Below are positions 5,967 through 55,570 of a stretch of 64,000 nt of DNA, piece after piece. This stretch comes from a virus: the IMG/VR virus record IMGVR_UViG_3300029092_000103. One strand, given 5' to 3'. The position numbers were made by a program, and so were the translations under genes. Each line of letters starts with the position of its first letter. Position 1 is the stretch's first letter. The notes under the pieces were generated by a model. That model searched no databases. It saw only the letters and a list, made by a program, of their open reading frames with translations, and was not told where the DNA came from.

Positions 5967-6251
5967 ATGAGGGAGAGAGACGTAGAGCAGAAATTAAGGA
6001 GCGAGGTAGAAAAGAGGGGTGGCAGGTGCTTTAAGTTTTTGTCTTCCGTATCTGGTGTGCCAGATCGGCTGCTTTTACTTCCCGGTGGTCTAGTAATTTT
6101 CGTGGAACTGAAGAAAGAGGGCGAGAAGCCAAGGAAGCTGCAGGAGGTACAGATGCGAAAAATAAGGGAATTGGGGTTTCATGTCCGGGTCGTGGACAGC
6201 GAACAGGGAATTCAGGAATTAATGAGGGAGATAGAAGATTGGAAAAGTTAA
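5967..6251 (+). CDS. VRR-NUC domain nuclease (PD-(D/E)xK)
   Basis: GVPDRLLLLPGG...VELKKEG matches the VRR-NUC core. Confidence 0.8.
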   Translation: MRERDVEQKLRSEVEKRGGRCFKFLSSVSGVPDRLLLLPGGLVIFVELKKEGEKPRKLQEVQMRKIRELGFHVRVVDSEQGIQELMREIEDWKS

Positions 6252-7618
6252 AGAGGGAGAATATGCACGAGTACCAGAGGTACTGTGTGGATTTCATAGA
6301 GACCCATGAAGAGGCAGCTGTATTGTTGGATATGGGACTGGGCAAAACAGCGATCGCACTGACTGCAATCTTTGATCTGGTCTATGACTTCTTTCTGGTG
6401 AGAAAGGTGCTGGTGGTGGCACCGCTTAGAGTGGCGAGAGATCAGTGGATCGCGGAAGTCGGAAAATGGGAGCATTTGTCGGATTTGAGGGTAAGCGTGG
6501 TGGTAGGTAGTGAACAGGAGAGAAAGGTCGCACTTATGCGAAGCGCGGATGTGTATGTGATAAATCGTGAGAATGTGGCATGGCTGGTAGAAAAAAGCGG
6601 AGCCGTTCTGGATTTTGACATGCTCGTGGTGGATGAGCTGAGTTCTTTTAAGAATTCAGACAGTAAGAGGTTCAAGGGGTTGATGAAATTAAGACCGAAG
6701 ATAAAAAGAACGGTAGGTCTGACAGGCACACCTGCATCCAACGGCTTAATGGATCTCTTTGCTGAGTATAAGCTGCTGGATAAGGGAAAGCGGCTGGGAA
6801 GGTTCATTACGAGGTACCGGGCTGATTACTTCAAGCCGGACAAGATGAACGGAGCAGTGGTCTACTCCTACAAGCCGCTCCCGTTTGCTGAGGAGGAAAT
6901 CTATAAAAAGATTTCTGACATGACCATTTCCATGAAGTCTACGGATTACTTACAGATGCCGGAAAAGGTCGTGACCGAGTGTATGGTCACGATGGATGAA
7001 AAGGAAAAGAAAAAATATGATGAGCTGAAAAAAGAATTGGTGCTGAACATGGGGGAAGAAAACGAGATCACAGCAGCAAATGCAGCTGCTCTCTGCGGAA
7101 AACTATCCCAGCTGGCGAATGGTGCAATCTACACCGATGACAAAAAGGTGATGCAGTTCCATGATAAAAAGCTGGATGCCCTGGAAGACCTGATTGAGGC
7201 CGCCAATGGAAAACCGGTTCTGGTAGCGTACTGGTACCAGCATGATCTGGAACGGATCAGGAAAAGACTGGATGAGAAGAAGATCGAGTATGACAAGATC
7301 GACAGCGGCGAGAGCATTAAGCGGTGGAATGCCGGTCAGCTTCCGGTCGGTCTGATCCACCCGGCTTCTGCCGGTCATGGGCTGAATCTTCAGAGCGGCG
7401 GCAACTGTATCATCTGGTTTGGAATCACATGGTCGCTGGAACTTTACCAGCAGACCAACGGAAGATTGTGGCGGCAGGGACAAAATTCTCAGACGGTGGT
7501 TATAAATCATATCATCACATCTGGCACTATAGATGAGAGGATTCTCCGGGTGCTCAAAGGTAAGGATGCGACACAGGAGGAGCTGATCGATGCAGTAAAA
7601 GCTAACTTAGGAGGATAA
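6239..7618 (+). CDS. SNF2-family DEAD/DEAH-box helicase
   Basis: Motif I LLDMGLGKT and motif II VVDELSSF are present, followed by a C-terminal helicase-C-like region. Pairing with VRR-NUC is typical in phages. Confidence 0.85.
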   Translation: MEKLKRENMHEYQRYCVDFIETHEEAAVLLDMGLGKTAIALTAIFDLVYDFFLVRKVLVVAPLRVARDQWIAEVGKWEHLSDLRVSVVVGSEQERKVALMRSADVYVINRENVAWLVEKSGAVLDFDMLVVDELSSFKNSDSKRFKGLMKLRPKIKRTVGLTGTPASNGLMDLFAEYKLLDKGKRLGRFITRYRADYFKPDKMNGAVVYSYKPLPFAEEEIYKKISDMTISMKSTDYLQMPEKVVTECMVTMDEKEKKKYDELKKELVLNMGEENEITAANAAALCGKLSQLANGAIYTDDKKVMQFHDKKLDALEDLIEAANGKPVLVAYWYQHDLERIRKRLDEKKIEYDKIDSGESIKRWNAGQLPVGLIHPASAGHGLNLQSGGNCIIWFGITWSLELYQQTNGRLWRQGQNSQTVVINHIITSGTIDERILRVLKGKDATQEELIDAVKANLGG

Positions 7619-8377: not shown

Positions 8378-8383
8378 TTCACG

Positions 8384-8412
8384 GGGCTCCGAAAGGGGCC
8401 TCGATTTTTTTG
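8384..8412 (+). terminator. Rho-independent terminator after the ArpU-like gene
   Basis: Hairpin GGGGCUCC-GAAA-GGGGCCUC (with two G-U pairs) followed by a T7 run. Confidence 0.6.
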
Positions 8413-8430: not shown

Positions 8431-8592
8431 GTGATGAGTAAAATCGTGGACGACTTTATGGCAGGAGTGTGTTATGATGGGAGCATGAAAAAAGGCCAGA
8501 CGAGAATGGCCGGAGCAAATGAGTAAAATCGTGGACGACATGGCGGACAAAGTGTGCTATGCTAGTACCATGAAAATAGGCCCGGAGGAAAT
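8431..8592. repeat. Two tandem ~75-bp imperfect direct repeats, each starting ATGAGTAAAATCGTGGACGAC
   Basis: The copies are about 80% identical and differ by an in-frame 3-nt indel (TTT). Each opens a small ORF. Confidence 0.7.
8434..8526 (+). CDS. Small ORF in repeat copy A (30 aa, MSKIVDDFMAGVCYDGSMKKGQTRMAGANE); speculative
   Basis: Its stop overlaps the start of the copy-B ORF (AATGAGTAA). No clear RBS. Confidence 0.2.
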   Translation: MSKIVDDFMAGVCYDGSMKKGQTRMAGANE

Positions 8593-8662
8593 CCGGGAGA
8601 GCAGAAGCCTTGGAGGATTGATTCCCCCAGGGCTATTTTTATGCCCGGAAGGGGGAGGATAA
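8519..8662 (+). CDS. Small ORF in repeat copy B (47 aa, MSKIVDDMADKVCYASTMKIGPEEIRESRSLGGLIPPGLFLCPEGGG); candidate antitoxin or leader, translationally coupled to the MazF-like gene
   Basis: GGAG lies 3 nt upstream. Its stop TAA at 8660-8662 is 1 nt before the toxin ATG at 8664. Its last codons GGGGGAGGA supply the toxin's RBS. The differences between copies A and B preserve the reading frame and include synonymous changes (GCA/GCG, TGT/TGC). Confidence 0.3.
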   Translation: MSKIVDDMADKVCYASTMKIGPEEIRESRSLGGLIPPGLFLCPEGGG

Positions 8663-8663
8663 G

Positions 8664-9083
8664 ATGGGCAGAAAGAACCGACCTGTAAAAATACGTAAGA
8701 AGTCGCTTCCTGATGTCACCAGAATTCAGCCGCCAAAGCGGATGGACATCTGGTACGCACATTTGAGAGAGAACACTGGAACCTCAGTGCAGGAGGGCAG
8801 TCGTCCGGTGCTGGTCATCAGCAATGATATGGCAAATAAGAATTCTGATGTGGTCACTGTGATCCCGCTGACTAGTCAGATGAAGAGAATTGAACTGCCG
8901 ACGCACTGCATTATTCATGATCTGCTGGACGAGGATTCTGTTGTTCTGGCAGAGCAGATCACTGCAATTCCGAAGTGGAGATTACACAGGAAACTGTGCA
9001 GCTGCACGGATGAAGTGCAGGTAAGTGAAATAGAAAGAGCTGTAAAGGTACAGCTTGGATTGGAGGACGAAACCAATGAGTAA
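8664..9083 (+). CDS. mazF: MazF/PemK-family endoribonuclease toxin (EndoA/NdoA-like), with a basic N-terminal extension of about 26 aa
   Basis: DIWYAHL...GSRPVLVISND...VVTVIPLTSQMKRIELPTHCIIH...DSVVLAEQITAIPKWRL aligns nearly collinearly with B. subtilis EndoA (DVYFADL...GVRPVLVIQND...AIVAAITAQ..KLPTHVEI...DSVILLEQIRTIDKQRL). The alternative start at 8742 lacks an RBS. Confidence 0.85.
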   Translation: MGRKNRPVKIRKKSLPDVTRIQPPKRMDIWYAHLRENTGTSVQEGSRPVLVISNDMANKNSDVVTVIPLTSQMKRIELPTHCIIHDLLDEDSVVLAEQITAIPKWRLHRKLCSCTDEVQVSEIERAVKVQLGLEDETNE

Positions 9084-10143
9084 GATCATCACCTGTGAAC
9101 AGGTCAGCAATGGCCATCCAGATAAGATCTGTGACCAGATCGCAGATGCCATCGTGACCGACATTCTCCAGCATGACAGGAACGCCCGTGTGGCGATCGA
9201 GTGTCTGCTGAAAAAGAGCCAGCTCTTTATTGCCGGCGAAGTCACCACCGATTATCGGCCAAACTATCAGCAGATCGTTCACGATGTGTTCAACCGCATC
9301 GGTACCGAAAAGTTGGGGTGGAATCTGACCGAGCTTCTTCGCATCGGCATTCTGGTGGACAAGCAGTCGCCGGATATTGCGCTTGGTGTGGACAAGGGCG
9401 GTGCCGGTGATCAGGGAATTATGTATGGCTACGCCACCAACGAGACGGCAGAGCAGATGCCGATCCCGTACATGGTCGCCACCAAGTTCCTGCAGCTGTT
9501 GAAGGACCATCCGTCTAAGATGTTCCGGGCAGATGCCAAGGCGCAGGTCAGCTACGATTACGACACCGGTCGTATCACCACCTTCCTCTGCTCCGTGCAG
9601 CACAGCCCGGATGTGGAGGTCAGCGACTTCCGGCACATCATCGAATCCATGATGGTGCTTGCCGCCTGCGAGTATGGACTGGACGGTGATTTCACGAAGC
9701 TGGTCAATCCGACCGGTCGTTTTGTGCTGGGTGGCAGTTACGCTGACTGTGGTGTGACTGGTCGGAAGCTGGCGTGCGATACCTACGGCGGCATTGGTCG
9801 CATGGGTGGCGGTGCTCTGAGCGGTAAAGACCCCACCAAGGTGGACCGCTCTGCAGCATACATGGCGAGGAAGATTGCCAAGGACATTGTGCAGGCGGGC
9901 TACGCTGACAAGTGCGAAGTCCAGCTGGCTTACGCCATCGGCGTGGTGCAGCCGGTCGGTGTGTCGGTGGAGTGCTTCGGTACGGAGCATCAGTCCCTTG
10001 ACTTCATCGAAGCCTACGTCCATGACAGCTATGACCTGACCCCGCAGGGTATCATCAAGCGGCTGGGACTGCTGGATGTAGATTACAACAAGGTCAGTGC
10101 TTACGGTCACTTTGGTAAGGCTGGTCTTCCGTGGGAGGACTGA
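9076..10143 (+). CDS. metK: S-adenosylmethionine synthetase (methionine adenosyltransferase), phage-encoded
   Basis: Canonical MetK motifs are present: GHPDKICDQIADAI, GAGDQGIMYGYA, DTYGG...GGGALSGKDPTKVDRSAAY. ATG 9076 lies 9 nt after GGAGG. Confidence 0.9.
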   Translation: MSKIITCEQVSNGHPDKICDQIADAIVTDILQHDRNARVAIECLLKKSQLFIAGEVTTDYRPNYQQIVHDVFNRIGTEKLGWNLTELLRIGILVDKQSPDIALGVDKGGAGDQGIMYGYATNETAEQMPIPYMVATKFLQLLKDHPSKMFRADAKAQVSYDYDTGRITTFLCSVQHSPDVEVSDFRHIIESMMVLAACEYGLDGDFTKLVNPTGRFVLGGSYADCGVTGRKLACDTYGGIGRMGGGALSGKDPTKVDRSAAYMARKIAKDIVQAGYADKCEVQLAYAIGVVQPVGVSVECFGTEHQSLDFIEAYVHDSYDLTPQGIIKRLGLLDVDYNKVSAYGHFGKAGLPWED

Positions 10144-10146
10144 CCC

Positions 10147-10506
10147 ATGCCGTACAGACCAAAGACACCGTGCCGTCATCCCGGCTGCCCGGAGCTGGTG
10201 GAACCCGGCCGGCTTTACTGTGAGAAGCACCTGCCTCTCCACCCAGAGGTCATTCGCCCGGCGGCGAAGCGTGGATACAACAGGCGGTGGCAGAAAGCCA
10301 GAAAGTCGTATCTCGAAGCACATCCGCTCTGTGTGCAGTGTGCCAAGCAGGGCAAGTATGTCCGGGCAACGGTGGTGGATCACATCATTCCGCACCGTGG
10401 TGACCAGAAACTTTTCTGGGACCAGAACAACTGGCAGCCACTCTGTAAGAGCTGCCACGATAAGAAGACGCTGACAGAGGACATCAACCCGACCTACACC
10501 TACTGA
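10147..10506 (+). CDS. HNH endonuclease
   Basis: Cys pairs plus a His/Asn core (CVQCAKQG...VDHIIPHRGD...NWQPLCKSCHDKK). Confidence 0.8.
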   Translation: MPYRPKTPCRHPGCPELVEPGRLYCEKHLPLHPEVIRPAAKRGYNRRWQKARKSYLEAHPLCVQCAKQGKYVRATVVDHIIPHRGDQKLFWDQNNWQPLCKSCHDKKTLTEDINPTYTY

Positions 10507-10906
10507 CACCCCCGCCGGGGCCGGGGTCACTTCTCTACAGTGAAGTCACACGGAGACCGGTGCGCCCTTTTCTGTGAAAAACCGCAAAATTCATAGGCCG
10601 GGGGTCAGAGGAATAACGGCGCAAAATGAAACAGGAAAATGTACAGGCATCGGAGCTTCGGTTCCGGTGCCATTCTTTTTCCCCGAAATGAACCAAAGTG
10701 TGTGAAACCTCTCGTAAACAGGGAGCTTTCGCACATTTTAGCTTGTTCCGGGAGGAGCAGGGGCGAGCGGGAATCGGCCGCCGCAACAACGATCCAACCT
10801 GGCGGGGCAGTGCCGATTTCCACTTCGCCGCTTTTCGTATGAATTATGAGATTTTTCTAAGAAACCGCCGAAGAAACGGCGAAAAATGAGAGTGAGGTGA
10901 GGGCAG

Positions 10907-11227
10907 ATGGAAGATTACACGGCTGAGATGATCAGGGACATGGCTTTTTCTTTCTGCCCTCAGTGCGGTACGGCAATCGTACCAAATCATAAAGGCAGAC
11001 CCCGGAAGTTCTGCTCTCCGGAATGCCGGTCACGGTGGAACAACACCCATCCAAAGCCGGAGAACTGGAAGACCGTGCGGTCGAAGATCTGCCCGGTGTG
11101 CGGCGGGGAGTTTTCCTACCGGCACCAGTATGGTCTGGAACGGAAATATTGCAGCCGTGCCTGTGCAAACAAAGGACGCTGGAAGGAGGGCGATGCAAAT
11201 GGAAGAACCGCTGAACATAGAACGTGA
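10907..11227 (+). CDS. Zn-ribbon repeat protein, hypothetical (two copies of CPxCG...RKFCSxxCR)
   Basis: FCPQCGTA...GRPRKFCSPECRSRW and ICPVCGGE...ERKYCSRACANKGRW. Confidence 0.55.
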   Translation: MEDYTAEMIRDMAFSFCPQCGTAIVPNHKGRPRKFCSPECRSRWNNTHPKPENWKTVRSKICPVCGGEFSYRHQYGLERKYCSRACANKGRWKEGDANGRTAEHRT

Positions 11228-11693
11228 TGTGGTAAAGAACGGTGTCCGGCTGGACTGTGTGTTTGAGGGCTATGAGTACCGCCCGGAGAGAGAAGAAGTC
11301 CGAAGCCAGCGGCTTGCCGGGTTTGAGTGTTCAGAGATCGCAGAAGACACAGGGTTTTCTTTGGAACAGGTCACGGATTACTGCCGGGAACTGGGGTTGC
11401 CGGAAACAGGGAGCTGCCAGTTACAGCCGCCGGATGGGTCGGGGGAACGGCGCTGCCCGGTGTGCGGACGGATTCTCGTGCAGAGAGGGAACAGTGGTCG
11501 GAGACGGTTCTGTTCTCCTGATTGCCGGGAGGAATATTACAGGCAGCATAAGTCTTTCCGGATCGCGGTCTGTAAAAACTGTGGAAGGGAGTTCCATGCC
11601 GTAGATGAAGGAAAACGGCAGCGGAAGTTCTGCAGTCTGAATTGTTATTGGGATTATCGATACGGGATGAAGGGAGTGGATGAGGATGAGTAA
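11193..11693 (+). CDS. Zn-ribbon repeat protein, hypothetical (two more copies of the same CxxC...RKFCSxxC module)
   Basis: RCPVCGRI...GRRRFCSPDCREEYY and VCKNCGRE...QRKFCSLNCYWDY. GGAGGG precedes ATG 11193. Confidence 0.55.
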   Translation: MQMEEPLNIERDVVKNGVRLDCVFEGYEYRPEREEVRSQRLAGFECSEIAEDTGFSLEQVTDYCRELGLPETGSCQLQPPDGSGERRCPVCGRILVQRGNSGRRRFCSPDCREEYYRQHKSFRIAVCKNCGREFHAVDEGKRQRKFCSLNCYWDYRYGMKGVDEDE

Positions 11694-11904
11694 GATTATC
11701 GTTGTGTTTCCGATGTTCAACACCGGGGGTATCTGTGTACATGCGATTGACGATGCGGAAGATAAGGTGCTGGCATCTGTGAACGGGGAAAACCCGGAAT
11801 GGTGCGAGATGGCTGAACAGCCGCAGGAAGATGGCGAGGAGATGGAGTCGGGCTTTGTGTTCGGCTCCTTTTTCGTGCCGTTCTCCGGGGTCATGCGCGT
11901 GTGA
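11680..11904 (+). CDS. Hypothetical small protein (74 aa)
   Basis: ORF overlapping the stop of the previous gene. Weak RBS. Confidence 0.3.
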   Translation: MRMSKIIVVFPMFNTGGICVHAIDDAEDKVLASVNGENPEWCEMAEQPQEDGEEMESGFVFGSFFVPFSGVMRV

Positions 11905-11926
11905 ATCTGAACGAGGAGGAGCTTAC

Positions 11927-13195
11927 ATGAAAGCAACCGCTGAACTGAAAATGCTGCCGGTTTCCGTACTCAAGCCGGCCGCATACAATCCCCGGAAAAA
12001 GCTGAAGCCGGGGGACAAGGAGTACGAAAAAATCAAGAACTCCATTACGGAGTTCGGGTTCGCTGATCCGCTGGTGGTCAATGCCGATATGACGATCATC
12101 GGCGGCCACCAGCGTCTGACCGTTGCGATGGAGCTGGGCTACACTGAAGTGCCTTGTGCGGTGGTGGACATCGACAAGACCAGAGAGAAAGCCCTGAACA
12201 TTGCGCTCAATAAGATCACGGGTGCATGGGATGATTCCCTGCTGGCTGACCTGTTGAAAGATATCGAAGATTCCAACTTCGACCTTGGCAAGACGGGCTT
12301 TGACCCGCCTGAGATCGAGACGCTGTTCAACAAGGTACACAGCAAAGAAGTCAAGGAAGATGACTTCGATGTGGAATCCGAGCTAAAGCAGCCATGCTTC
12401 TCCAAAGAGGGCGACCTCTGGCATCTGGGAAAGCACAGCGTTCTGTGCGGCGATTCCACCAAAGCAGAATGCTACGACACCTTGATGGATGGCACCAAAG
12501 CCAACCTTGTGCTTTCGGACCCGCCTTACAATGTAGACGTGGAAGAAACGGCCGGCAAGATCCTGAACGACAACATGGGCGATTCGGAATTCTACCAGTT
12601 CCTGCTGGCAGCGTTTCAGCAGATGCACGAGCATCTGGCCGATGACGGCTCTATCTACATTTTCCATGCAGACACCGAGGGGCTGAACTTCCGAAAGGCA
12701 TTCAAGGATGCAGGGTTCTACCTGTCCGGGTGCTGTATCTGGAAGAAGAATGCTCTGGTGCTGGGCCGCAGTCCTTACCAGTGGCAGCACGAGCCGTGCC
12801 TCTACGGTTGGAAACAGAAGGGCAAGCACCAGTGGTATTCCGACCGGAAGCAGACGACTATTTGGGAGTATGACCGGCCGAAGTCCAACAAGGACCATCC
12901 GACCATGAAGCCCATCGGCCTGATGAGTTATCCCATCCGCAACTCGACCATGACCAACGGCATCGTTCTCGACCCGTTCCTCGGCAGCGGCTCGACGCTG
13001 ATTGCCTGTGAGAAAACCGACCGTGTGTGCCGGGGTATTGAGCTGGACCCGAAGTTCGTGGATGTTATCGTGAAGCGGTACATCGAACACAGCGAGGGTC
13101 ACTACGATGATGTGTATGTTATCCGGGATGGTCAGAAGCTGAAGTTCGAGGAAGTAGCAACCTTTGAGCCGGAAAGCGAGGACGCCGATGCCTGA
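11927..13195 (+). CDS. ParB-like nuclease N-terminal domain fused to a DNA methyltransferase (pfam01555-type N6A/N4C; DPPY motif)
   Basis: N-terminal ParB-like core (GGHQRL, PLVVNADMTIIGGHQR). Motif IV VLSDPPYN. C-terminal FxGSGST-like region (LDPFLGSGSTLIA). GAGGAGGA RBS precedes ATG 11927. Confidence 0.85.
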   Translation: MKATAELKMLPVSVLKPAAYNPRKKLKPGDKEYEKIKNSITEFGFADPLVVNADMTIIGGHQRLTVAMELGYTEVPCAVVDIDKTREKALNIALNKITGAWDDSLLADLLKDIEDSNFDLGKTGFDPPEIETLFNKVHSKEVKEDDFDVESELKQPCFSKEGDLWHLGKHSVLCGDSTKAECYDTLMDGTKANLVLSDPPYNVDVEETAGKILNDNMGDSEFYQFLLAAFQQMHEHLADDGSIYIFHADTEGLNFRKAFKDAGFYLSGCCIWKKNALVLGRSPYQWQHEPCLYGWKQKGKHQWYSDRKQTTIWEYDRPKSNKDHPTMKPIGLMSYPIRNSTMTNGIVLDPFLGSGSTLIACEKTDRVCRGIELDPKFVDVIVKRYIEHSEGHYDDVYVIRDGQKLKFEEVATFEPESEDADA

Positions 13196-13961
13196 TGTGA
13201 AATGCGTTCTCATCCATGACAACTTCCAGAACTTCAAGTCCTACAACATCCCCAAGGCGCAGCTGGTGATTGCAGACATTCCGTACAACATCGGTACGGA
13301 TTTCTACGCCAGCCGGCCGGACTGGTATGTAGATGGCGACAACAAAAATGGGGAGAGCAGTAAGGCGAGGAAGGCAGCGTTCAATACCGACTTCACTTTC
13401 AATATCGCAGAGTATTTCCACTTCTGCAACCGCCTGCTGAAGAAAGAACCCGGCACGGGTGAAAAAGATGCGCCGTGCATGATCGTGTTCTGTGCGTTCC
13501 AGCAGATCCCGAAAGTAATCACCGAAGCCGAGAAATACGGCTTCAAGAATTATATCCCTCTGGTGTTCTGCAAGAACTACAGTCCGCAGGTGCTCAAAGC
13601 CAATATGAAGATCGTGGGCGCAACGGAGTACGCGCTGGTGCTGTACCGGGGCAAGCTCCCGAAGTTCCGCAATCTCGGTGAGGACGGTAAGTCCCACATG
13701 ATCTTCAACTGGTTTGACTGGAAGAGAGATGGGAAGGAGTATCCGAAGATCCATCCCTCCCAGAAACCAATCTCCGTGATGAAGCGCCTGATCGAGACTT
13801 TCACTGACCCCGGCGATGTGGTCATTGACCCGTGCGCTGGTAGCGGCTCGACCCTTCGTGCAGCACGAGAGCTGGGGCGCAACAGCTATGGATTTGAAGT
13901 ATCCAGAGATTTTTACCAGAAAGCCAAGGAGCAGATGCTCGGAGAGGAGGATGGCGGATGA
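13188..13961 (+). CDS. DNA methyltransferase, beta-class N6-adenine/N4-cytosine (D-I-P-Y variant)
   Basis: Motif IV IADIPYN precedes motif I VIDPCAGSGSTLRAA. RBS AGGA lies 7 nt upstream of ATG 13188, which overlaps the stop of the previous gene. The ORF track's TTG at 13164 is an alternative start. Confidence 0.8.
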   Translation: MPDVKCVLIHDNFQNFKSYNIPKAQLVIADIPYNIGTDFYASRPDWYVDGDNKNGESSKARKAAFNTDFTFNIAEYFHFCNRLLKKEPGTGEKDAPCMIVFCAFQQIPKVITEAEKYGFKNYIPLVFCKNYSPQVLKANMKIVGATEYALVLYRGKLPKFRNLGEDGKSHMIFNWFDWKRDGKEYPKIHPSQKPISVMKRLIETFTDPGDVVIDPCAGSGSTLRAARELGRNSYGFEVSRDFYQKAKEQMLGEEDGG

Positions 13962-16354
13962 ACACAGAACAGAATAAGCCTTTGACCCTCGGCAGCCTCT
14001 TCGATGGCTCCGGGGGTTTTCCTTTGGGCGGTCTTTTGACCGGGCAGATCACTTCGCTGTGGAGCAGTGAAATCGAGCCGTTTGCCATCCGGGTCACGAC
14101 CAAGCGTCTGCCGTGGGTGAAGCATTACGGTGATGTGTCTGCTATCAGCGGTGCAGACCTGCCGCCCGTGGACATCATCACTTTTGGTTCACCCTGTCAG
14201 GATATGTCCATCGCCGGTAAGAGGGACGGTCTGGATGGTTCACGGTCCAGCCTGTTTTACGAAGCAATCCGAATCGTGAAGGAAATGAGGTGTAAGACCA
14301 ATGGAGAAAAACCAAGATTTATCGTCTGGGAGAATGTGCCAGGGGCCTTCTCCTCAAACAAAGGACAGGACTTCAAAGCAGTCCTCGAAGCCGTCATCGG
14401 TGTTAAAGAACCGGCCGCCACGGTGCCTGCGCCTGAGAAGAAAGGATGGCCCGACGCCGATTACTATGTGGGAGACGGATGGAGCGTCGCGTATCGAGTT
14501 CTTGATGCACAATGGTGGGGCGTTCCCCAAAGAAGAAAACGCATCTACCTTGTCGCAGATTTTGCAGACCAGAGTGCCCCAAAGGTACTATTTGAGTCCG
14601 AAGGCATGTCTCGGTATTCTGCGGAGGGCTTCCGTGCGTGGCAAAGAGCTGCCGCCGGTGCTGAAGGCAGCATTGGAGAGACAGGCTGCTGTGGATTCGA
14701 CGGATACAACGGATGCCTGACAGGAAATGTATCCTCGACCATCGGTGAAAACTGCGGGATGTCTACAGGCCGAAATAGTGTGGTGGTCCTGAACGACCAG
14801 GGCGGCACACAGATGGATGTTTCCGAAGATGTGACCGGGACCCTCCGGACGCAGGAGCATGGGCATCAGCCTTGTGTTCTGGAAGCAGCCGGCTTCTGTA
14901 CCGAGCATTCGGCAAATGCCAGAAGCATCGGGTATGAGGAAGAACGGTCGCCAACCCTCCGGGCTAGGGTCGTGCCTGCCGCCATCGCATTGGAAAATCA
15001 TCCAGCGGATAGCCGAGTGAAGATTTCCGAGGATGGCAAGGTGCAGACACTGACAAGTCGGTGTGGGACAGGAGGCGGCAATGTCCCAATGGTCATGGAT
15101 ACAGTTGAGAACTCCCCGGCAGTCACATTGAAGATCCGTTCTGGGTGTGAGGGCGGCGGCAAGGGAGCCATCTGGCAGGAAGAAAAGTCTGCTACTCTTG
15201 GCTGTAACAATGACCAGACGCTATTCGTTCCCAAGTGCTATGGTGTCTGCTCGAAAGCCAGCCATTCCATGATGTCCGACAATCCGCACAGTGGATTCTA
15301 TGAAGCCGAAACTTCCCGGACGCTGGACCGCAGCGGCGGTGACCCGACGTGCAATCAAGGTGGGCTGTGTATCTGTGAACCTGTTGTCTGCGTGGATCAG
15401 GGCGGTGGTAAGTCGAACTGCACAGTGGATGAACGGGTGGCACCACCCCTTGCCTGTACCCACGGTGGCGCACCGGCTGTTGCCTTTACCCAGAACCAGC
15501 GGGATGAAGTCCGGAATCTAGGGGATAAGTCAGCGGCACTAGCAGCAGAGCCGGGGATGAAGCAGCAGACCTTTGTGGCACAGCCGGAAGATGTGACGGC
15601 TTTCCATGTAAACCAGCGCAATGAGCTGATCGACCTGCATGGTAAGTCCGGTGCGCTTATGGCAACCCGGAGCGACCAGATGCAGACCTTCGTCCTGCAG
15701 GGCAACATGATCGGCCGCAAGGACGAGAATGGTCCGCAGGGAGATGGCGTCAATGAGGATGTATGCTTTACCTTGGATGCGACAGACCGACACGCAGTCT
15801 GCACACCGGAAGATGTGTATGCCATGACCACCGGCTCCTTTATGAGAATAGAGGAAAATGTATCTCCGACCCTGATGGCAAGGGATTACAAAGACCCGGC
15901 CACCATCGCACCGGTGCCGCATCTGAACGAGGGTGTTATGGGAACGGTGGCAACCGGAGCACATCCAAGCGGTTTTAACGGGCAGGACGCTTTTAATGAC
16001 CGGCTGGTCATTGACAACCCGGAAGTACAGCCTGCACCTGTGACCTACACCGTCCGCCGCCTGACACCGACAGAGTGTGCCAGACTGCAAGGCTTCCCAG
16101 ACTGGTGGTGCAGAAACCTTGGAACGGAAAATCCGACTGAGGAGGAGCTTGCATTCTGGGCAGATGTGTTTGAAACGCACCGTAAGATCGTGACACACGC
16201 GAAAAAGCCGAAGACGGAGAAGCAGATCCGTAAATGGCTCACTGACCCTTATACGGATTCGGCGGAATACCGTATCTGGGGCAACGGCATTTGCTTGGCA
16301 AACGCATTTTTTGTTCTGGCCGGCATCGCATGGTGCGCAGGACTGGAAGAATAA
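13958..16354 (+). CDS. DNA (cytosine-5)-methyltransferase, unusually large (798 aa), with a variable region of about 450 aa suggesting several target-recognition domains
   Basis: Motif I LFDGSGG, motif IV GSPCQDMS, motif VI FIVWENV, and C-terminal motifs RRLTPTECARLQGFPDWW. A long region from about 14600 to 16000 lacks conserved motifs. Confidence 0.85.
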   Translation: MNTEQNKPLTLGSLFDGSGGFPLGGLLTGQITSLWSSEIEPFAIRVTTKRLPWVKHYGDVSAISGADLPPVDIITFGSPCQDMSIAGKRDGLDGSRSSLFYEAIRIVKEMRCKTNGEKPRFIVWENVPGAFSSNKGQDFKAVLEAVIGVKEPAATVPAPEKKGWPDADYYVGDGWSVAYRVLDAQWWGVPQRRKRIYLVADFADQSAPKVLFESEGMSRYSAEGFRAWQRAAAGAEGSIGETGCCGFDGYNGCLTGNVSSTIGENCGMSTGRNSVVVLNDQGGTQMDVSEDVTGTLRTQEHGHQPCVLEAAGFCTEHSANARSIGYEEERSPTLRARVVPAAIALENHPADSRVKISEDGKVQTLTSRCGTGGGNVPMVMDTVENSPAVTLKIRSGCEGGGKGAIWQEEKSATLGCNNDQTLFVPKCYGVCSKASHSMMSDNPHSGFYEAETSRTLDRSGGDPTCNQGGLCICEPVVCVDQGGGKSNCTVDERVAPPLACTHGGAPAVAFTQNQRDEVRNLGDKSAALAAEPGMKQQTFVAQPEDVTAFHVNQRNELIDLHGKSGALMATRSDQMQTFVLQGNMIGRKDENGPQGDGVNEDVCFTLDATDRHAVCTPEDVYAMTTGSFMRIEENVSPTLMARDYKDPATIAPVPHLNEGVMGTVATGAHPSGFNGQDAFNDRLVIDNPEVQPAPVTYTVRRLTPTECARLQGFPDWWCRNLGTENPTEEELAFWADVFETHRKIVTHAKKPKTEKQIRKWLTDPYTDSAEYRIWGNGICLANAFFVLAGIAWCAGLEE

Positions 16355-16418
16355 ACTGGCCCGCTATATTACTAGGTAGGACAACTACCCGATGATATGG
16401 TGGGCTTACATATTGGTT

Positions 16419-16458
16419 CCATTTACACAACAGGTTTTGCAGTCCATTGTGTAAATGG
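16419..16458. repeat. Perfect 12-bp inverted repeat (CCATTTACACAA ... TTGTGTAAATGG) with a 16-nt loop; candidate operator or processing site
   Basis: Read directly from the sequence. It lies in the intergenic region between the C5-MTase gene and the acidic-protein gene, with no T-run after it. Confidence 0.5.
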
Positions 16459-16581
16459 TCGAACATGAAGAATATCGGAAAATGGCCTTGCTATTTGCTC
16501 GGTTTAGAGCGATATATGTGCTACCGAAAAGAACATCGGGATGCACAAAAACAAAAGAACAAGCAAAAGGAGCGATGAATT

Positions 16582-17808
16582 ATGTTGAAATTTGAACTGA
16601 ACGTAGCCGAGCGCAAGACCCTCGCAAAACGCATGGAGGACCTGACGGGCATCCACCCTTACTACACCAAAGCACCGCTGTACTCCTACGACATCGGCAA
16701 CTACACCATCGACCGGGATGGCAACCTGCTGGTCGAACCGGAGAATGCGGATGCCGAACTGCTGACGACCCTGCTGAATGAGGGTTTGATCCGCGGCGGT
16801 GAGAGCATCGAGGATGCGGATGCACAGAACCAGCCGGAGAACACAGAGCTGACTGTGGATGAGGAGCCTGTGACCGAAGCGGAAGCAGAGGAAGTGGAAG
16901 CCGAAGAAGCAGAACAGCAGACCGATGCAGAGCAGGAGATTCTGGATGAGCAGGAAGCCGATGATGTGGATACCACAGAACCGGAGGAGTCTTCGGAAAC
17001 CGAAGCCGGGGAAGCACAGGAATCGGATGATATGGCAGCGGATGGTACAGCAGAGGATGCGCCGGAAGAAGAGCCGGAGAATGAAGAACCGCAGGAAGCA
17101 GAAGATCAGACGGATGAAGTTCCTCTGGATTTGGAGCTTTCCTTCCCGGTCAGCCAGCACAACGGCGTGACTCTCCGCAACCTGGTCAACCTTCTCTACA
17201 GCCGCGGTAAGCTCATCGGAAAAGCGACTGGCGGACACTTCCATGTGGATGAAGGGCTGGTCGAAAAGCTGAAGGATGACAGCTGCACCTTTGCCATTAT
17301 GAACTTCATCAATGCGGTCAGCAATTATGAAGCCGAGCATGGTGTGGCACTGGAAGGTCTGAGAATTACCACCGAAAAGGTCACCTTTACCGGCTTCCCG
17401 ACTGCACCGGACCACGATCACCTGACGGCTTTCGCACAGCTGGCCGTCCTGATGAACCAGCAGGCCATCAGCCAGAAGCGCATCCAGGCAAAGGCTGTCA
17501 ATGATGAGAATGAGAAGTACGCACTCCGCACTTGGCTCCTGCGGCTGGGCATGAACGGTCCGGACTTCAAGGAGACCCGTAAGATTCTCATGGAGAGACT
17601 TTCCGGTCATGCGGCTTTCCGCACGGATGAGGAAGCACAGAAGTTCCTTGCAAGGGAAAAGGCAAAGCGGGATGCCCTGAAAGCCGCGAAACAGGCGGTA
17701 CAGGAGGGCGGTTCCTCCGCTGGGGAAACGGTCGAGCAGGATGCAACCCAGCCGACACAGCCCGACTGTGGGGCAGACACGGCGCAGATGATGGAGGCGG
17801 GAGCGTAA
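16582..17808 (+). CDS. Hypothetical protein with a very acidic Asp/Glu-rich central region of about 120 aa
   Basis: RBS AAGGAG upstream. The segment at 16780-17150 is almost entirely E/D/T/A/Q. Confidence 0.6.
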   Translation: MLKFELNVAERKTLAKRMEDLTGIHPYYTKAPLYSYDIGNYTIDRDGNLLVEPENADAELLTTLLNEGLIRGGESIEDADAQNQPENTELTVDEEPVTEAEAEEVEAEEAEQQTDAEQEILDEQEADDVDTTEPEESSETEAGEAQESDDMAADGTAEDAPEEEPENEEPQEAEDQTDEVPLDLELSFPVSQHNGVTLRNLVNLLYSRGKLIGKATGGHFHVDEGLVEKLKDDSCTFAIMNFINAVSNYEAEHGVALEGLRITTEKVTFTGFPTAPDHDHLTAFAQLAVLMNQQAISQKRIQAKAVNDENEKYALRTWLLRLGMNGPDFKETRKILMERLSGHAAFRTDEEAQKFLAREKAKRDALKAAKQAVQEGGSSAGETVEQDATQPTQPDCGADTAQMMEAGA

Positions 17809-17963: not shown

Positions 17964-17994
17964 TTGATAAATGCGAGAAACAGCGGCATATATA
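17964..17994 (+). promoter_or_regulatory. Promoter-family copy P0 (TTGATA, with -10 atatat/TATACA) upstream of the GGCT-like gene
   Basis: TTTTATGGCCTTGATA matches the upstream box of P1. Confidence 0.35.
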
Positions 17995-18039
17995 CAGTGC
18001 CGCCAGACAAGAGCGGAAAAGAAAGGAGTGCGAAATTTT

Positions 18040-18531
18040 ATGAAAAATAAGATGAAAAGAAAGAAATACTACATCGCTTACGGCAATAGCCTGTCTGTAG
18101 GACAGATGATGCAGAGGTGTCCGGGGGCACAGATCGTGGGGCAAGCGGTGCTTGTGGGCTGGGAGCTTTTATTCCGGGGGTGCGCAACCATCGCACCGAA
18201 TCCGAAGAAAAACACACCGGCTCTGGTGTGGAAAATTTCGGAGAGGGATGAGAGGTGTCTCGATGCCTACGAGGGCTTTCCGCACAACTTCCGCAAGGAA
18301 TACTTGAGCATTGAACTGCTTCGTGAGGGTGCAGAACCGGAAATTGTGACTGCGATGACTTACATCATGGAGAAAGACTTCGGGTGCTGTGCGCCGAGTC
18401 CGTATTACTACAAAATCCTGAAAGACGGCTACAAGGCATTCCACTTCCCAATGCATATCCTCGAAGATGCGCTGAAGAAATGTAGGAGCGGAGAGGCCGG
18501 TCGGCAGATGAGCAAGGAGGGACAGAGATGA
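18040..18531 (+). CDS. Gamma-glutamyl cyclotransferase-like (AIG2/GGCT family) protein
   Basis: KKYYIAYGNSLSVGQM matches the YxxYGSNL GGCT signature. Confidence 0.6.
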   Translation: MKNKMKRKKYYIAYGNSLSVGQMMQRCPGAQIVGQAVLVGWELLFRGCATIAPNPKKNTPALVWKISERDERCLDAYEGFPHNFRKEYLSIELLREGAEPEIVTAMTYIMEKDFGCCAPSPYYYKILKDGYKAFHFPMHILEDALKKCRSGEAGRQMSKEGQR

Positions 18532-49029: not shown

Positions 49030-51420
49030 ATGAGTGCTGGTACGGATTTCCTTGCAAGTTTGCAGAAAAAGACTGTGAAAAGTACAGTCCAACAGAAACA
49101 GCAGAAGAGAGCGAATGCATCCGCTGTGGATGTCTCGGCTTTACTGGAAGCCGCTCTCAGGCAGAAGAAACCTACGGAAGCTGTGGCAGATGTTCGTCAA
49201 AGTGCGGATGTCGCCACAGCTTCTTTTTTACCACCGACTGACACGCATCAAGGCAAGTCTACTCAACAAAAGCCGAAAAGCGCGTCAGATAAAGCAGTAC
49301 TACAGAAGCAATCAACCTCAAAATCCAAAGACATCGTTGATGCCGGTATCACAGCCCTTATCCAGAAAGCTCTGGATGCCAAAAAGGTTATGGAGCAGCC
49401 GGATATTGCAGAAAGGCTGCAAAGTAGTATGGAGAGCGAGTTCACACAGCTTTTCGCTGCCGAGAATGAACCGCAGGAAAGCAAGTTTGTTTCGACTGCG
49501 ACATTCCGCACCACCAAAAAGAAGATTGGAAGCATCCGTGTGGCGGCTTATATCCGCGTGTCCACGGATATGAGCGACCAGGAGAACTCATACGAAACGC
49601 AGGAAAAGTATTTTAATCAGCTGATTCAAAGCAATCCGGAATGGAATGCAGTCGGTGTGTACTCCGATTACGGTATCTCCGGCACTTCCAAGGAAAAGAG
49701 AACTGGATTCCGCAGGCTGATGCGCCACTGTAAGGATGGCAAAATCGACCGCATTGTGTGCAAGTCCATTTCCCGATTTGCCCGAAATACGGCTGACTTT
49801 ATGACGGCACTGGATACCCTGCACGACTGCGGAGTGACGATTCTGTTCGAGAAAGAAAATCTGGATACGGCAGACCCGACCAGCGACTTCATCCTTACAA
49901 CGCTGGCCGCCATCGCACAGGAAGAAAGCCGCAGCATTTCCGGTAACATCCGACAGGGCAATAAGATGCGCTTTCCGAAAGGGGAAGTTCCCAACAAGAT
50001 TATGTACGGATACCGCTACAACGGGAAGATGGTTACTTCCGAGAGCGGATATGAGTATAAAGACATCGAGGTCGTGGAAGAAGAAGCCAAGGTCGTCCGG
50101 CGCATTTTCAACGAAGTCGTGGAAGGCAAAGCCTATACGGAAATCGCAAGGGGACTGAATCTGGATAAGATTCCGGCTCCGGAGTCAGATATGGCGAGGG
50201 CCAGAAAGCGGAATTCCAAGAAAGGACAGCTGAACAGTGATTTACAGGACGGCTGGACTGGAGGGAATATCACGAGAATCGTCCGTGCCGAGCGATACAT
50301 GGGAGCAGTTCTCATTCAGAAGGTGTTCACACCGGATTATCTGACCCATACGGTTCAGAAAAACAACGGTGAAGTTCCACAGTATTTTGTCCGGAACCAC
50401 CATCCGGCAATCATTGATGAGGATTTGTTTCAAAAAGCGCAGGAAGTCGTAAAGGCAAACAGTGAACTGTATAACAGGACAAGGTTCAAGAAGAAGCCGA
50501 GAGCATTTTCTCAGAGGCTCATCTGTGGGGAGTGTGGACGGTTCTACTCTGTGACAAATGGAAACGGAAGCAATCCCATTTGGAGATGCCCTACGAGCAG
50601 CCAGACGACTGGAAAGTGCATCTGCCATGCAGAGAAAGTATACGAGGAACAGATTGTTCGTGTATTCCGTAAGGCGATTCTGGAACGGTTCCGGCTGACC
50701 ATCAAGCCCATTCACGACAATGTGGCTGTGGCAGATATCATGAGCGGACGTTTCAAAGAGCAGTATGACAACTTCACACCGGAAGCGGATTCCTTTGTGA
50801 GCCAGATGCTTGCAAGACTGGAAAGCATTCAAAAGCTGGACTTCATGGAACGCGACCGTGCTTTTTATAAGAAGCAGATTGCCGCCGCCCACACCAGTGT
50901 GGAAAGCACCAATAAGAAGATTCGGCTTCTGAAAAGTCAGGTAGATGTGATGCATACTCGTCTGGAAGTCCTCGGAGATGAGATGATCAGTCCGGCTTCC
51001 ATTGAGGAAAAGAAAAAACTCATTGAGAAGCTGGAGCAGGATGTTCAAAAAGACACAGACACTGAGCAGAAGCTGACCGAACAGCTCGACTACATGGAAA
51101 ACTACTGGGAAGAGCTGGAGAGCGACTATGAACGCAGGGAAAAGGCAATCGAGTGGATGAAGAACCTCCCGGTGGGTCGGGATGGTACGGTGGCTTTCTT
51201 AAATGAAGTGACCGAAGAACACTGCAAGGCATTTATCCTTTCGATTACCATCTATTCACCGCTGAAGTTCACGGTTCACTGGTTTGATGATACCAAGACC
51301 GAGGTGCAGATGGATTCCAACATTGAAGATTACCGCAATACCGCAAGCTACTATGACGGGCATACGATGCGTGATGGCAGCCAGCGGAAAAAGTATGTAA
51401 GAAGAACCAGAAGAAAATAA
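49030..51420 (+). CDS. Large serine recombinase (integrase), with an N-terminal extension of about 155 aa
   Basis: Resolvase catalytic domain (RVAAYIRVSTDMSDQENSYETQ...ISGTS...SISRFARNT), then recombinase, Zn-ribbon (CGECGRF...WRC) and coiled-coil regions. Confidence 0.85.
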   Translation: MSAGTDFLASLQKKTVKSTVQQKQQKRANASAVDVSALLEAALRQKKPTEAVADVRQSADVATASFLPPTDTHQGKSTQQKPKSASDKAVLQKQSTSKSKDIVDAGITALIQKALDAKKVMEQPDIAERLQSSMESEFTQLFAAENEPQESKFVSTATFRTTKKKIGSIRVAAYIRVSTDMSDQENSYETQEKYFNQLIQSNPEWNAVGVYSDYGISGTSKEKRTGFRRLMRHCKDGKIDRIVCKSISRFARNTADFMTALDTLHDCGVTILFEKENLDTADPTSDFILTTLAAIAQEESRSISGNIRQGNKMRFPKGEVPNKIMYGYRYNGKMVTSESGYEYKDIEVVEEEAKVVRRIFNEVVEGKAYTEIARGLNLDKIPAPESDMARARKRNSKKGQLNSDLQDGWTGGNITRIVRAERYMGAVLIQKVFTPDYLTHTVQKNNGEVPQYFVRNHHPAIIDEDLFQKAQEVVKANSELYNRTRFKKKPRAFSQRLICGECGRFYSVTNGNGSNPIWRCPTSSQTTGKCICHAEKVYEEQIVRVFRKAILERFRLTIKPIHDNVAVADIMSGRFKEQYDNFTPEADSFVSQMLARLESIQKLDFMERDRAFYKKQIAAAHTSVESTNKKIRLLKSQVDVMHTRLEVLGDEMISPASIEEKKKLIEKLEQDVQKDTDTEQKLTEQLDYMENYWEELESDYERREKAIEWMKNLPVGRDGTVAFLNEVTEEHCKAFILSITIYSPLKFTVHWFDDTKTEVQMDSNIEDYRNTASYYDGHTMRDGSQRKKYVRRTRRK

Positions 51421-54418: not shown

Positions 54419-55570
54419 ATGAAAATACTCCGTATCACCGCACAGGGACTTCCACTGTTTAAAGAAAACCTGGATATCTGTTTTTACACACAGCAGCGCG
54501 TAAGTGAGGATGATAAGTGTAGTCTATATAATTTGATTGATAATTATTATCTTCACACTACCAATGCGTTTATTGGAATCAATGCGTCTGGTAAGACCTC
54601 TGTGTTAAAGGTTATCAATTTGGCTCTGAACATTGTAAAGAATGAGCCCATTAATCATGTAGAGGCAAAAACTATTCTTGGTGGAGCAAGAGAAGCTACG
54701 ATTTGCACTTATTTTTATGATAATCGTAAATATGTCTGCTGCCTAGAAACTGTAATTACGGCAAAAAAAGCAAAGGCAGGAGATTATGTGTATTCGATCC
54801 TGTCCGAAAGACTGTGGGAAAAATCAATTGTCAGTATCAAGTCGAAGAAGTATTTGACGGATTTCACCGGAATGGAGCCTGTGGCATCGCGTAATAGCGA
54901 TGAAGCATATCTTTCAGATGATGTCAGCTTTATCATTGCACATAATAAAAAAGCAAATGATACGGTGGAAGTGTTTAGCTTACTTTCTTACACGAATGTG
55001 AATGTGCTTCCCTTTACTGAGGATATTCCATTGGAAGTGATTGCTTTTCTGGACCCAACCATTGAAAAATTGTGCTTCGAGCAAACAGAGGGAAAGACAT
55101 TTATCCATTTGAAATTCCGAAATGAAGATGAAATTGTTTTAAACAATGCAGTGGACCTTGAGCAGTATCTGTCTTCCGGTACAATCAAAGGTATTATTAC
55201 ATTCTCAATGGTGAAGGAGGTACTTCAATCTGGTGGATACTTGCTGGTAGATGAAATTGAAAACCATTTTAATAAGGAAATTGTAACAACACTGATTCGT
55301 TTCTTTATGGATGGCCGACTTAACAAAAAAGGTGGAACACTGATTTTTACAACACATTATCCAGAGTTGTTGGATGAATATGACCGCAATGATGGAATTT
55401 GTATCGTAAGAAACCGTAATGGCATCACAGTAGAAAACCTGAGCTATATATTGAAACGTAATGATATTAAAAAAAGCGATGCATATCAGAGTGGATTTCT
55501 GGAAGGAACGACCCCTGCGTATGAGGCCTATATGCGCTTGAAGAAGAACCTGGCTGCTTCAATTCATTAA
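54419..55570 (+). CDS. AAA_21/ABC-like ATPase (AbiLi-like, OLD-family ATPase-like)
   Basis: Walker A GINASGKTSV. Walker B/D-loop LLVDEIENHFN. H-loop TTHYPELL. The sequence is AT-rich relative to the prophage. Confidence 0.75.
   Translation: MKILRITAQGLPLFKENLDICFYTQQRVSEDDKCSLYNLIDNYYLHTTNAFIGINASGKTSVLKVINLALNIVKNEPINHVEAKTILGGAREATICTYFYDNRKYVCCLETVITAKKAKAGDYVYSILSERLWEKSIVSIKSKKYLTDFTGMEPVASRNSDEAYLSDDVSFIIAHNKKANDTVEVFSLLSYTNVNVLPFTEDIPLEVIAFLDPTIEKLCFEQTEGKTFIHLKFRNEDEIVLNNAVDLEQYLSSGTIKGIITFSMVKEVLQSGGYLLVDEIENHFNKEIVTTLIRFFMDGRLNKKGGTLIFTTHYPELLDEYDRNDGICIVRNRNGITVENLSYILKRNDIKKSDAYQSGFLEGTTPAYEAYMRLKKNLAASIH

Follow-up and report, generated by a model that had tools for sequence, protein, structure and literature searches.

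Phages SPR, phi3T, rho11s, SPbeta and H2 of Bacillus encode C5-cytosine DNA methyltransferases (C5-MTases) which, like M.(phi)BssHII, combine one catalytic core with contiguous, exchangeable T-L modules located between motifs VIII and IX. These enzymes, known from work of the Trautner laboratory, are phage-borne and orphan, and those that have been characterised possess two to five known specificities. A C5-MTase of this general build with ~12 cassettes is encoded in IMG/VR virus record IMGVR_UViG_3300029092_000103, a stretch of 64,000 nucleotides referred to below as the window. Two further methyltransferase (MTase) genes directly precede it, and a gene for the S-adenosylmethionine (SAM) synthetase MetK is located upstream of all three. 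We favour, with moderate confidence, the view that these genes constitute a self-methylation module, in which orphan MTases, including a multispecific C5-MTase, act together with a MetK that supplies SAM. The 12-cassette C5-MTase is a large member of a known multispecific kind and not a new kind.

The combination of MetK and MTases is likewise already known for this phage lineage and is not new. De Jonge et al. (2024, Nat Commun, PMC11283538) report that 67% of Candidatus (Ca.) Heliusvirales genomes encode a C5-MTase and 58.9% a SAM synthetase. The passages of that paper concerned with these genes suggest an anti-restriction-modification role, treat both as KEGG-annotated auxiliary metabolic genes and mention no MTase cassette structure; phages of the lineage are reported there in ~80% of human gut metagenomes (PMC11283538). 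Viral metK has also been described as an organosulfur auxiliary metabolic gene that is under purifying selection and expressed in lake metatranscriptomes, and metK and dcm were found on the same viral genomes (Kieft et al., bioRxiv 10.1101/2021.01.05.425418). No description of the cassette structure of the present C5-MTase family was found in the literature searched. The SAM lyase of phage T3 is comparable as a phage gene that acts on the SAM pool against SAM-dependent host defences. Its tactic is the opposite one: T3 destroys SAM, inhibits host MetK, disables Type I restriction-modification and BREX, and leaves its DNA unmethylated, whereas the phage of the window encodes SAM synthesis and MTases. 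The first-pass annotation of this DNA had regarded depletion of host SAM as a known anti-phage theme; the literature searched instead presents the destruction of SAM and the inhibition of MetK as tactics of T3.

The genes that carry the argument are the following.

9076..10143, + strand: MetK, compact phage-type, 355 aa (PF00438, PF02772, PF02773; TIGR01034; phrog_1569)
11927..13195, + strand: fusion of ParB-N with a beta-class amino-MTase (ParB-MTase), 422 aa (PF02195, E 1e-8, and PF01555, E 1e-28; phrog_498)
13188..13961, + strand: second beta-class amino-MTase (DIPY MTase), 257 aa (PF01555, E 1e-25; phrog_67)
13958..16354, + strand: C5-cytosine DNA MTase, 798 aa (PF00145, E 5e-41; TIGR00675; PDLC03715)

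The MetK and MTase gene set in 9076-16354 is real, with domain scores far above chance, and the three MTases proposed in the first-pass annotation, namely a ParB-N fusion, a beta-class DIPY enzyme and a C5-MTase, are confirmed by PF02195, PF01555 and PF00145. The start of MetK is most likely ATG 9076, which has a GGAGGA ribosome-binding site on its 5' side, rather than TTG 9055. The ParB-MTase is taken to start at ATG 11927, behind GAGGAGGAG, rather than at 11831, and the DIPY MTase is read from the sequence to start at ATG 13188. The MTase genes overlap by 8 nt (ATGCCTGA) and 4 nt (ATGA), and because of these overlaps the three appear to be translationally coupled.

In the proposed mechanism, the three coupled orphan MTases would methylate the replicating phage genome, and the methylated progeny DNA would enter the next host already protected from restriction enzymes. 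The C5-MTase would act like the SPR, phi3T and SPbeta enzymes, with one core and a row of ~12 short cassettes, each of which would presumably specify methylation at its own short sequence; gain, loss, duplication and reordering of cassettes would retune the protected sites to the restriction systems of the hosts. MetK would make SAM from methionine and ATP, and would probably prevent the methyl donor from running short when many sites have to be methylated in a burst of new DNA. We infer the enzymatic activities, the number of active specificities, the anti-restriction role and the functional connection of MetK with the MTases from the comparisons described below. A stronger form of the proposal, in which at least 8 of the 12 cassettes are active, each with its own target, a number far above the two to five specificities of characterised enzymes, and are reshuffled by gut phages over short evolutionary times to track host restriction, with MetK needed against SAM exhaustion, is possible and on the unlikely side.

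In the C5-MTase, the match to PF00145 is split into N- and C-terminal parts, TIGR00675 scores 138 bits against a cut-off of 101, and both ends align to M.HhaI. Motifs I-VIII are located in residues 11-200 and motifs IX-X in residues 695-790, in the canonical order LFDGSGG, SPCQ, ENV, QRRKR, RRLTPTECARLQGFPD and GNGI. Motif VIII (QRRKR, residue 191) is separated from motif IX (RRLTPTE, residue ~700) by a variable region of ~505 aa; the corresponding region comprises 127 aa in the shortest complete family member. An oversized insert had been noted before, as ~450 aa between motif VI and motifs IX/X; the excess holds, and the size is revised to ~505 aa between VIII and IX. The variable region contains the cassettes listed here.

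14693..16033, + strand: target-recognition cassette array of the C5-MTase, residues 246-692 (cassette hidden Markov models (HMMs), indels, ratio of nonsynonymous to synonymous substitution rates (dN/dS))
residues 246-274, 275-305, 306-346 and 347-381, + strand: cassettes m1-m4 of the C5-MTase
residues 382-425, 426-474, 475-507 and 508-541, + strand: cassettes m5+6, m7, m8 and m9 of the C5-MTase
residues 542-580, 581-616, 617-652 and 653-692, + strand: cassettes m10-m13 of the C5-MTase

Repeats within the variable region were sought by windowed Smith-Waterman comparison against shuffles and with per-cassette HMMs; blastp self-comparison of the region gave no matches. The m9/m10 pair is a tandem repeat (residues 508-541 and 547-581, E 1e-26), and HMMs of single segments detect other segments (m2 detects m12 at 6e-9, and m8 detects m2 at 2e-8). 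An iterated HMM of a generic target-recognition domain (TRD) core, with the consensus GSQGDVSEDVSPTLRARDGGHPPCV, has 7 copies in the C5-MTase (E 9e-6 to 4e-14). The T-L within it is invariant, as is characteristic of recognition domains in C5-MTases. Since the generic HMM misses several cassette families, its copy number being correlated with the length of the variable region at r = 0.51 only, the per-cassette analysis was used in place of generic-core counts. By this analysis the array has 12 independently assorting units, 7 of which match the common core. Its sequence relationships show the C5 variable region to be an array of TRD cassettes and not one TRD with a foreign domain. The earlier suggestion of multiple TRDs agrees with the 7 core copies and 12 assorting units, and the tandem pair, the cross-matching HMMs and the cassette indels speak against a single TRD joined to an unrelated domain. 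All cassettes are under purifying selection about as strong as that on the catalytic core (dN/dS 0.02-0.29 per cassette and 0.12-0.14 in the catalytic domains). We also note that the 40 linker residues which connect motif VIII with the first cassette (residues 206-245, 14573-14692) are the only unconstrained-looking part of the gene, with a dN/dS of 1.36 at an unusually low dS (0.10).

Comparison among relatives reveals that phages which are otherwise near-identical differ by gains, losses, duplications and rearrangements of cassettes. More than 100 homologues at 78-90% identity range in length from 719 to 825 aa through indels that coincide with cassette segments. Nineteen cassette architectures (589-821 aa) are present among 57 IMG/VR phages, nearly all of which have a MetK at least 91% identical to that of the window; the differences concern m1, m8, the copy number of m9/m10, m13, a duplication of m4 and an extra 42-aa cassette. 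In a wider survey of 150 representatives clustered at 50% identity, 136 different cassette orders were observed, and 75 representatives are not colinear with the query. The m6 segment directly follows m5 in 47 of 48 cases, for which reason m5+6 is counted as one unit; the other segments have promiscuous neighbours. A complete family member of 413 aa bears the m5+6 unit only. Natural variation thus shows that modules can be added, removed and exchanged without loss of the enzyme.

One cassette, m11, shows homology to part of the variable region in two other enzymes, an SPbeta-type MTase (E 3e-8) and the MTase of Streptococcus prophage Javan55 (E 7e-7), and the generic core HMM matches 'GLSPTLTTMGGGH' of a Bacillus-phage (SPbeta-type) enzyme at E 4e-4. 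The catalytic core of the window enzyme, however, is only ~23% identical to that of the SPbetaL4 (SPbeta-type) enzyme, and on this ground it appears to belong to a different subfamily with a related mechanism. The C5-MTase of the Javan prophages, in contrast, is an SPbeta-like enzyme of 417 aa with few cassettes. Long members of the C5 family have been catalogued in PADLOC, where the REBASE-derived model PDLC03715 (719 positions), an entry without specificity or cassette analysis, matches the window enzyme at 904 bits in 5 stretches, which reflect a different cassette content.

MetK contains the three expected Pfam domains above their gathering scores (PF00438, E 8e-26; PF02772, E 2e-24; PF02773, E 1e-55), and scores 394 bits against the TIGR01034 equivalog, the cut-off of which is 309.4. 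It matches the 346-position profile phrog_1569 over its full length (449.5 bits, residues 11-361 on positions 2-345), and aligns to residues 5-369 of E. coli MetK (7ll3) with GHPDK, GAGDQG, DAK, TGRK, GGGA-SGKD and KVDRSAAY kept. Residue by residue, the substrate- and metal-binding positions of 7ll3 are retained; in E. coli numbering these are His14/Asp16, Glu42, Glu55, Gln98, Asp118, Asp163/Lys165, Asp238, Arg244/Lys245 and, within GGGAxSGKD, Lys265/Lys269/Asp271. The score and the alignment bear out the earlier description of a complete MetK with intact motifs. Compared with the E. coli enzyme, the protein has a 5-residue deletion past the gating loop, two further small deletions, and lacks the last ~15 residues. 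It is ~25-30 residues shorter than cellular MetKs, which could be taken as a sign of a recent, decaying copy of a host gene. The same deletions are found in the MetK of Javan55, and a compact length of ~345-355 aa is common to the phage family phrog_1569, with 140 MetK-encoding INPHARED records (~90 of them Streptococcus prophages annotated as such) and 398 IMG/VR relatives. In GTDB, with one genome per species, prophage-type MetKs are 52-99% identical to that of the window; cellular MetKs, those of Lachnospiraceae included, are only 42-49% identical. Given this low identity to cellular enzymes, the phage MetK is judged not to be a recent host copy, and with the binding and catalytic motifs also retained, a decaying host-derived gene is very improbable. 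An Rfam scan of the whole window matched no RNA family, and hence no SAM riboswitch was detected.

The two amino-MTases are both of the beta class by motif order. In the ParB-MTase, SDPPYN (motif IV) precedes DPFLGSGST (motif I), and in the second enzyme DIPYN precedes DPCAGSGST. The ParB-MTase scores 631 bits with phrog_498 and 575 bits with the PADLOC MTase_II model PDLC03229, and is 67% identical to the 'adenine-specific methyltransferase' of Javan55. In about one quarter to one third of the close relatives no DIPY MTase was detected. No restriction-enzyme family was recognised among the scanned proteins of 8664-17808, where the sole nuclease is an HNH protein of 119 aa (phrog_144), and the best PADLOC model for the C5-MTase, PDLC03715, is that of an 'orphan methyltransferase'. 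The MTases are thus probably orphan, with no cognate restriction endonuclease recognised among these scanned proteins.

Between MetK and the MTases, and directly upstream of MetK, the following features are located.

8664..9083, + strand: MazF/PemK-like toxin gene (PF02452, E 2e-22; phrog_1936, E 2e-26)
10147..10506, + strand: HNH endonuclease, 119 aa (PF01844, E 4e-10; phrog_144, E 3e-38)
10646..10671, + strand: terminator-like hairpin and T-run (11-bp stem with 7 GC pairs; consensus match only)
10907..11227, + strand: Zn-ribbon protein 1, 106 aa (phrog_2308, E 1e-17; phrog_1271, E 1e-17)
11193..11693, + strand: Zn-ribbon protein 2, ~166 aa from an internal ATG (phrog_2308, E 4e-22)

The first-pass annotation had placed MetK 1.8 kb upstream of the MTases with an HNH endonuclease and two Zn-ribbon proteins in between; the distance is that from 10143 to 11927, and the intervening genes are supported by PF01844, phrog_144 and phrog_2308. 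From MetK to the C5-MTase all genes have one orientation and a conserved order. The order sigma-like regulator, MetK, HNH, Zn-ribbon, ParB-MTase, C5-MTase and TerS/TerL is identical in Javan55, where TerL is 76%, MetK 57% and the ParB-MTase 67% identical to the proteins of the window, and a Zn-ribbon 2 homologue stands between the HNH and ParB-MTase genes. The Javan55 record (MK448802.1) leaves the HNH (~6037-6402) and Zn-ribbon (~6691-7146) genes unannotated between metK and the adenine MTase. The same order recurs in NatCom_42594, a phage classified in Ca. Heliusvirales with a TerL 75% and a MetK 62% identical to those of the window, and in ~55-60 IMG/VR loci. NatCom_42594 has a helicase, a MazF-like protein, MetK-HNH, a DNA MTase, a gamma-glutamyl cyclotransferase and TerS/TerL in the same sequence; its MetK is annotated as a 'peptidase'. 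Since the same order is found in Javan55, NatCom_42594 and the IMG/VR relatives, the block from MetK to the C5-MTase is old and stable. Relative to the Streptococcus 'Javan' / group-A prophages, among them Javan55 and 12/111phiA, the window adds one beta-class MTase and ~7 kb of accessory genes before TerS.

It is plausible from the conserved synteny that MetK feeds the MTases, as has previously been proposed for the Ca. Heliusvirales (PMC11283538). Of 6 prophage-type MetKs with sufficient flanking sequence, 4 have a DNA MTase encoded no more than 8 kb away, compared with 1 of ~72 cellular metK loci, a contrast between phage and cellular contexts that constitutes weak evidence for the link. 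MT836278 was considered as a case of MetK directly adjoining MTases and dropped; the record is a 2.98-kb deletion derivative with a truncated metK. In this closest phage record (MT836278.1), the junction at 4357/4358 corresponds to window positions 10067..13044. The deletion starts in the 3' end of metK and extends into that of the ParB-MTase gene; HNH and the two Zn-ribbon genes are lost together with most of the ParB-MTase, and the last ~20 residues of MetK are replaced.

Two groups of observations weigh against a self-methylation module, the first concerning the C5-MTase and its targets. Some cassettes are just 29-35 aa long. The SPR and phi3T enzymes have mapped TRDs of ~40-50 aa, and are also known to contain inactive pseudo-TRDs. 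The AlphaFold2 model of the full C5-MTase, built from an alignment of 40 homologues at ~90% identity, is unusable (mean predicted local distance difference test score, pLDDT, of 28). With the variable region alone, a PDB sequence search returned only spurious TALE-repeat matches (E at least 0.05), and the 27-position cassette-core profile, which is too short for power database-wide, retrieved no C5-MTase or its TRDs from the PDB. In the genome itself, the ratio of observed to expected palindromes (O/E), computed on the phage part of the window (1-54000), is 0.25 for CCWGG, 0.32 for ACGT, 0.57 for GATC and 0.60 for GGCC, and CCATGG, AAGCTT, CCCGGG, GGCGCC and CTCGAG are entirely missing where 9-20 of each are expected; CCGG, AGCT, TCGA and GCSGC occur at expectation. 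Because the genome still strongly avoids many palindromes, the data suggest that methylation is not the phage's only route of evasion. Methylation may cover part of the threat, or deamination of 5-methylcytosine may remove methylated sites; the data fit both. A candidate target for m12 was also considered, as 'ENVSPTLMARDYKDPATI' resembles 'QSVTRTLSARYYKDGAEI' in 3lx6, a 'Cytosine-specific methyltransferase' chain that is presumably Dcm-like; the similarity falls short of significance, CCWGG is strongly avoided, and the lead was dropped.

The short cassettes, the significant match of only 7 of the 12 units to the generic TRD-core profile, the continued avoidance of many classic C5 targets and the lack of a fold model or solved TRD match would all be expected if most cassettes were structural repeats or inactive pseudo-TRDs and the enzyme methylated only 1-3 motifs. 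What this explanation has to accommodate is that every cassette is under purifying selection matching that of the catalytic core, that cassettes assort independently in many orders, that a complete enzyme with a single unit exists, and that cassette content varies among near-identical phages, which is hard to explain for inert spacers. An enzyme of such low specificity seems to us possible and on the unlikely side.

The second group concerns the connection of MetK with the MTases. The 1.8 kb between them contain unrelated-looking genes and two terminator-like hairpins, and MazF-MetK-HNH has the appearance of a cassette of its own. The stop of the MazF/PemK gene overlaps the MetK start by 8 nt, the HNH gene begins 3 nt past the MetK stop, and HNH directly follows MetK in ~60 close IMG/VR relatives with enough downstream sequence as well as in NatCom_42594 and Javan55. 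The hairpins at 10646-10671 and 11844-11868 divide the region into MazF-MetK-HNH, the Zn-ribbon genes and the MTase operon, and a further terminator-like hairpin is present at 8382-8403, upstream of MazF. In S. agalactiae, moreover, a prophage metK region affects aggregation and biofilm formation of the lysogen (PMC8223999). In that prophage, 12/111phiA, deletion of the relB-yafQ/endonuclease/metK region or of metK alone lowers aggregation, chain length, glycocalyx and biofilm, and plasmid-borne metK partly restores these traits (PMC8223999). As in the window, a toxin gene is located upstream of metK, RelB/YafQ in 12/111phiA and MazF-type here (PMC8223999).

MetK might accordingly be a gene of lysogenic conversion or auxiliary metabolism, acting on the methyl cycle, on sulfur, polyamine or autoinducer-2 (AI-2) pools or on a surface phenotype, with the MTases nearby only by virtue of a shared accessory slot between replication and packaging genes. 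The toxin-MetK-endonuclease layout with hairpins 8382-8403 and 10646-10671 at its flanks is typical of a moron, the treatment of viral metK as an organosulfur auxiliary metabolic gene with expression in lake metatranscriptomes fits such a role, and in FP_Brigit no MTase is annotated in the 6 kb following MetK, only a ParB-like nuclease. An accessory slot shared by chance is less easily reconciled with an order from MetK through HNH and Zn-ribbon to the MTases that persists in phages with just 57-62% MetK identity, or with the MTases that accompany most prophage-type MetKs. This alternative is serious, and we give it roughly the weight of a one-in-four chance; a role of MetK in the lysogen phenotype and a role in methylation are not exclusive.

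The same hairpins bear on the unity of the region, which the first-pass annotation had named a methylation anti-restriction island. The genes it named are all present, and they have one orientation and a conserved order; since terminator-like hairpins split the region and neither the HNH nor the Zn-ribbon family is tied to methylation, the 'island' is probably not one functional unit. The HNH family phrog_144 is most often linked to phage packaging. Each Zn-ribbon protein has two C-P-x-C-G...(R/K)(K/R)(F/Y)-C-S-x-x-C units, and the direct-repeat family D2 marks the repeated FCS motif in Zn-ribbon 2, the start of which is probably near 11193. Zn-ribbon 1 has only weak zinc-finger matches in Pfam, all below cut-off, and matches phrog_1271, a region that is fused to HNH enzymes in other phages. 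By these family relationships, the HNH and Zn-ribbon genes need have no tie to methylation, and more likely form a nuclease module, possibly associated with packaging. We also note an open reading frame (ORF) of 74 aa at 11680-11904, without a PHROG match, that begins within the 3' end of Zn-ribbon gene 2 and occupies the interval preceding the ParB-MTase gene; the hairpin 11844-11868 falls inside it, and one of the two may not be real.

The presence of HNH and of a ParB-N (nuclease/CTPase-like) domain in the same conserved block also raises the question of a function unrelated to restriction, in which the MTases would place a packaging or replication mark, serve lysis-lysogeny epigenetics, or protect the DNA from a phage nuclease such as HNH. 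Orphan MTases with regulatory roles are well known, Dam and CcrM among them. The HNH protein, at 119 aa and of the phrog_144 type, has no recognisable specificity domain, and three MTases with a fast-changing multi-cassette array fit a restriction arms race better than a fixed mark. We therefore consider such a function improbable, and retain self-methylation against restriction as the preferred reading.

The MazF/PemK gene, which the first-pass annotation had not mentioned, is context and lies outside the methylation function. Two 64-nt direct repeats are present directly upstream of it (8434-8497 and 8519-8582; 78% identical, with an 85-nt period), and encode paralogous small ORFs at 8434-8526 (30 aa) and 8519-8662 (47 aa) that follow the hairpin 8382-8403 closely. 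Both begin with MSKIVDD, neither matches a PHROG, and one or both may act as the missing antitoxin of MazF/PemK, as protein or RNA.

The phage of the window is a temperate siphophage of gut Lachnospiraceae/Clostridia. All long ORFs of the first 54 kb are on the + strand. An early and replication block, with DNA polymerase, Ant, primase-helicase, SNF2 helicase and a sigma-like regulator, is located upstream of the methylation region, and an amidoligase-like protein and a gamma-glutamyl cyclotransferase follow on its 3' side, succeeded by TerS, TerL, portal, capsid and tail genes, so that the modification module is placed between replication and packaging genes; a lysin and large serine recombinases are also encoded. 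The TerL is 75% identical to that of the Evtepia phage NatCom_42594 and 76% identical to those of the Streptococcus 'Javan' prophages, and TerL identity and gene order would tentatively place the phage with the 'Javan' and Ca. Heliusvirales phages. Among genome-resolved relatives, the one closest in the MetK region is a prophage of Clostridium fessum SNUG30386, with a MetK 99% identical and a DNA identity of ~84-94% in patches.

Directly 3' of the MTases, a 408-aa protein (16582-17808) contains a very acidic, D/E-rich stretch at residues ~75-175, and its C-terminal half matches phrog_2443 'amidoligase'. It is followed by the gamma-glutamyl cyclotransferase (17971-18531), and the pair recurs 3' of the MTases in NatCom_42594 and the IMG/VR relatives. 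The acidic segment, adjoining the MTases, may be DNA-mimic-like and is possibly of interest. Three large serine recombinase genes are present at 49030-51420, 51456-53756 and 57907-59763, the first two adjacent and the third beyond a segment of low GC (0.40). This segment encodes, around 54419-55570, an AbiLi-like AAA ATPase (PADLOC, E 6e-30) and an AAA_25 protein. It may represent either a nested element or a defence cassette carried by the prophage.

These findings extend current concepts without changing them. Restriction barriers in gut Firmicutes are dense, and the way in which a phage crosses them bears on host range, on horizontal transfer and on the delivery of DNA into hard-to-transform Clostridia. 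A library of cassettes on one C5 scaffold would, if the proposal is true, be a resource for mapping rules of sequence recognition, and could provide 'methylation helper' plasmids with which DNA is protected in advance from many restriction systems at once. If self-methylation requires a phage to supplement SAM, a common viral auxiliary metabolic gene would be an accessory of counter-defence.

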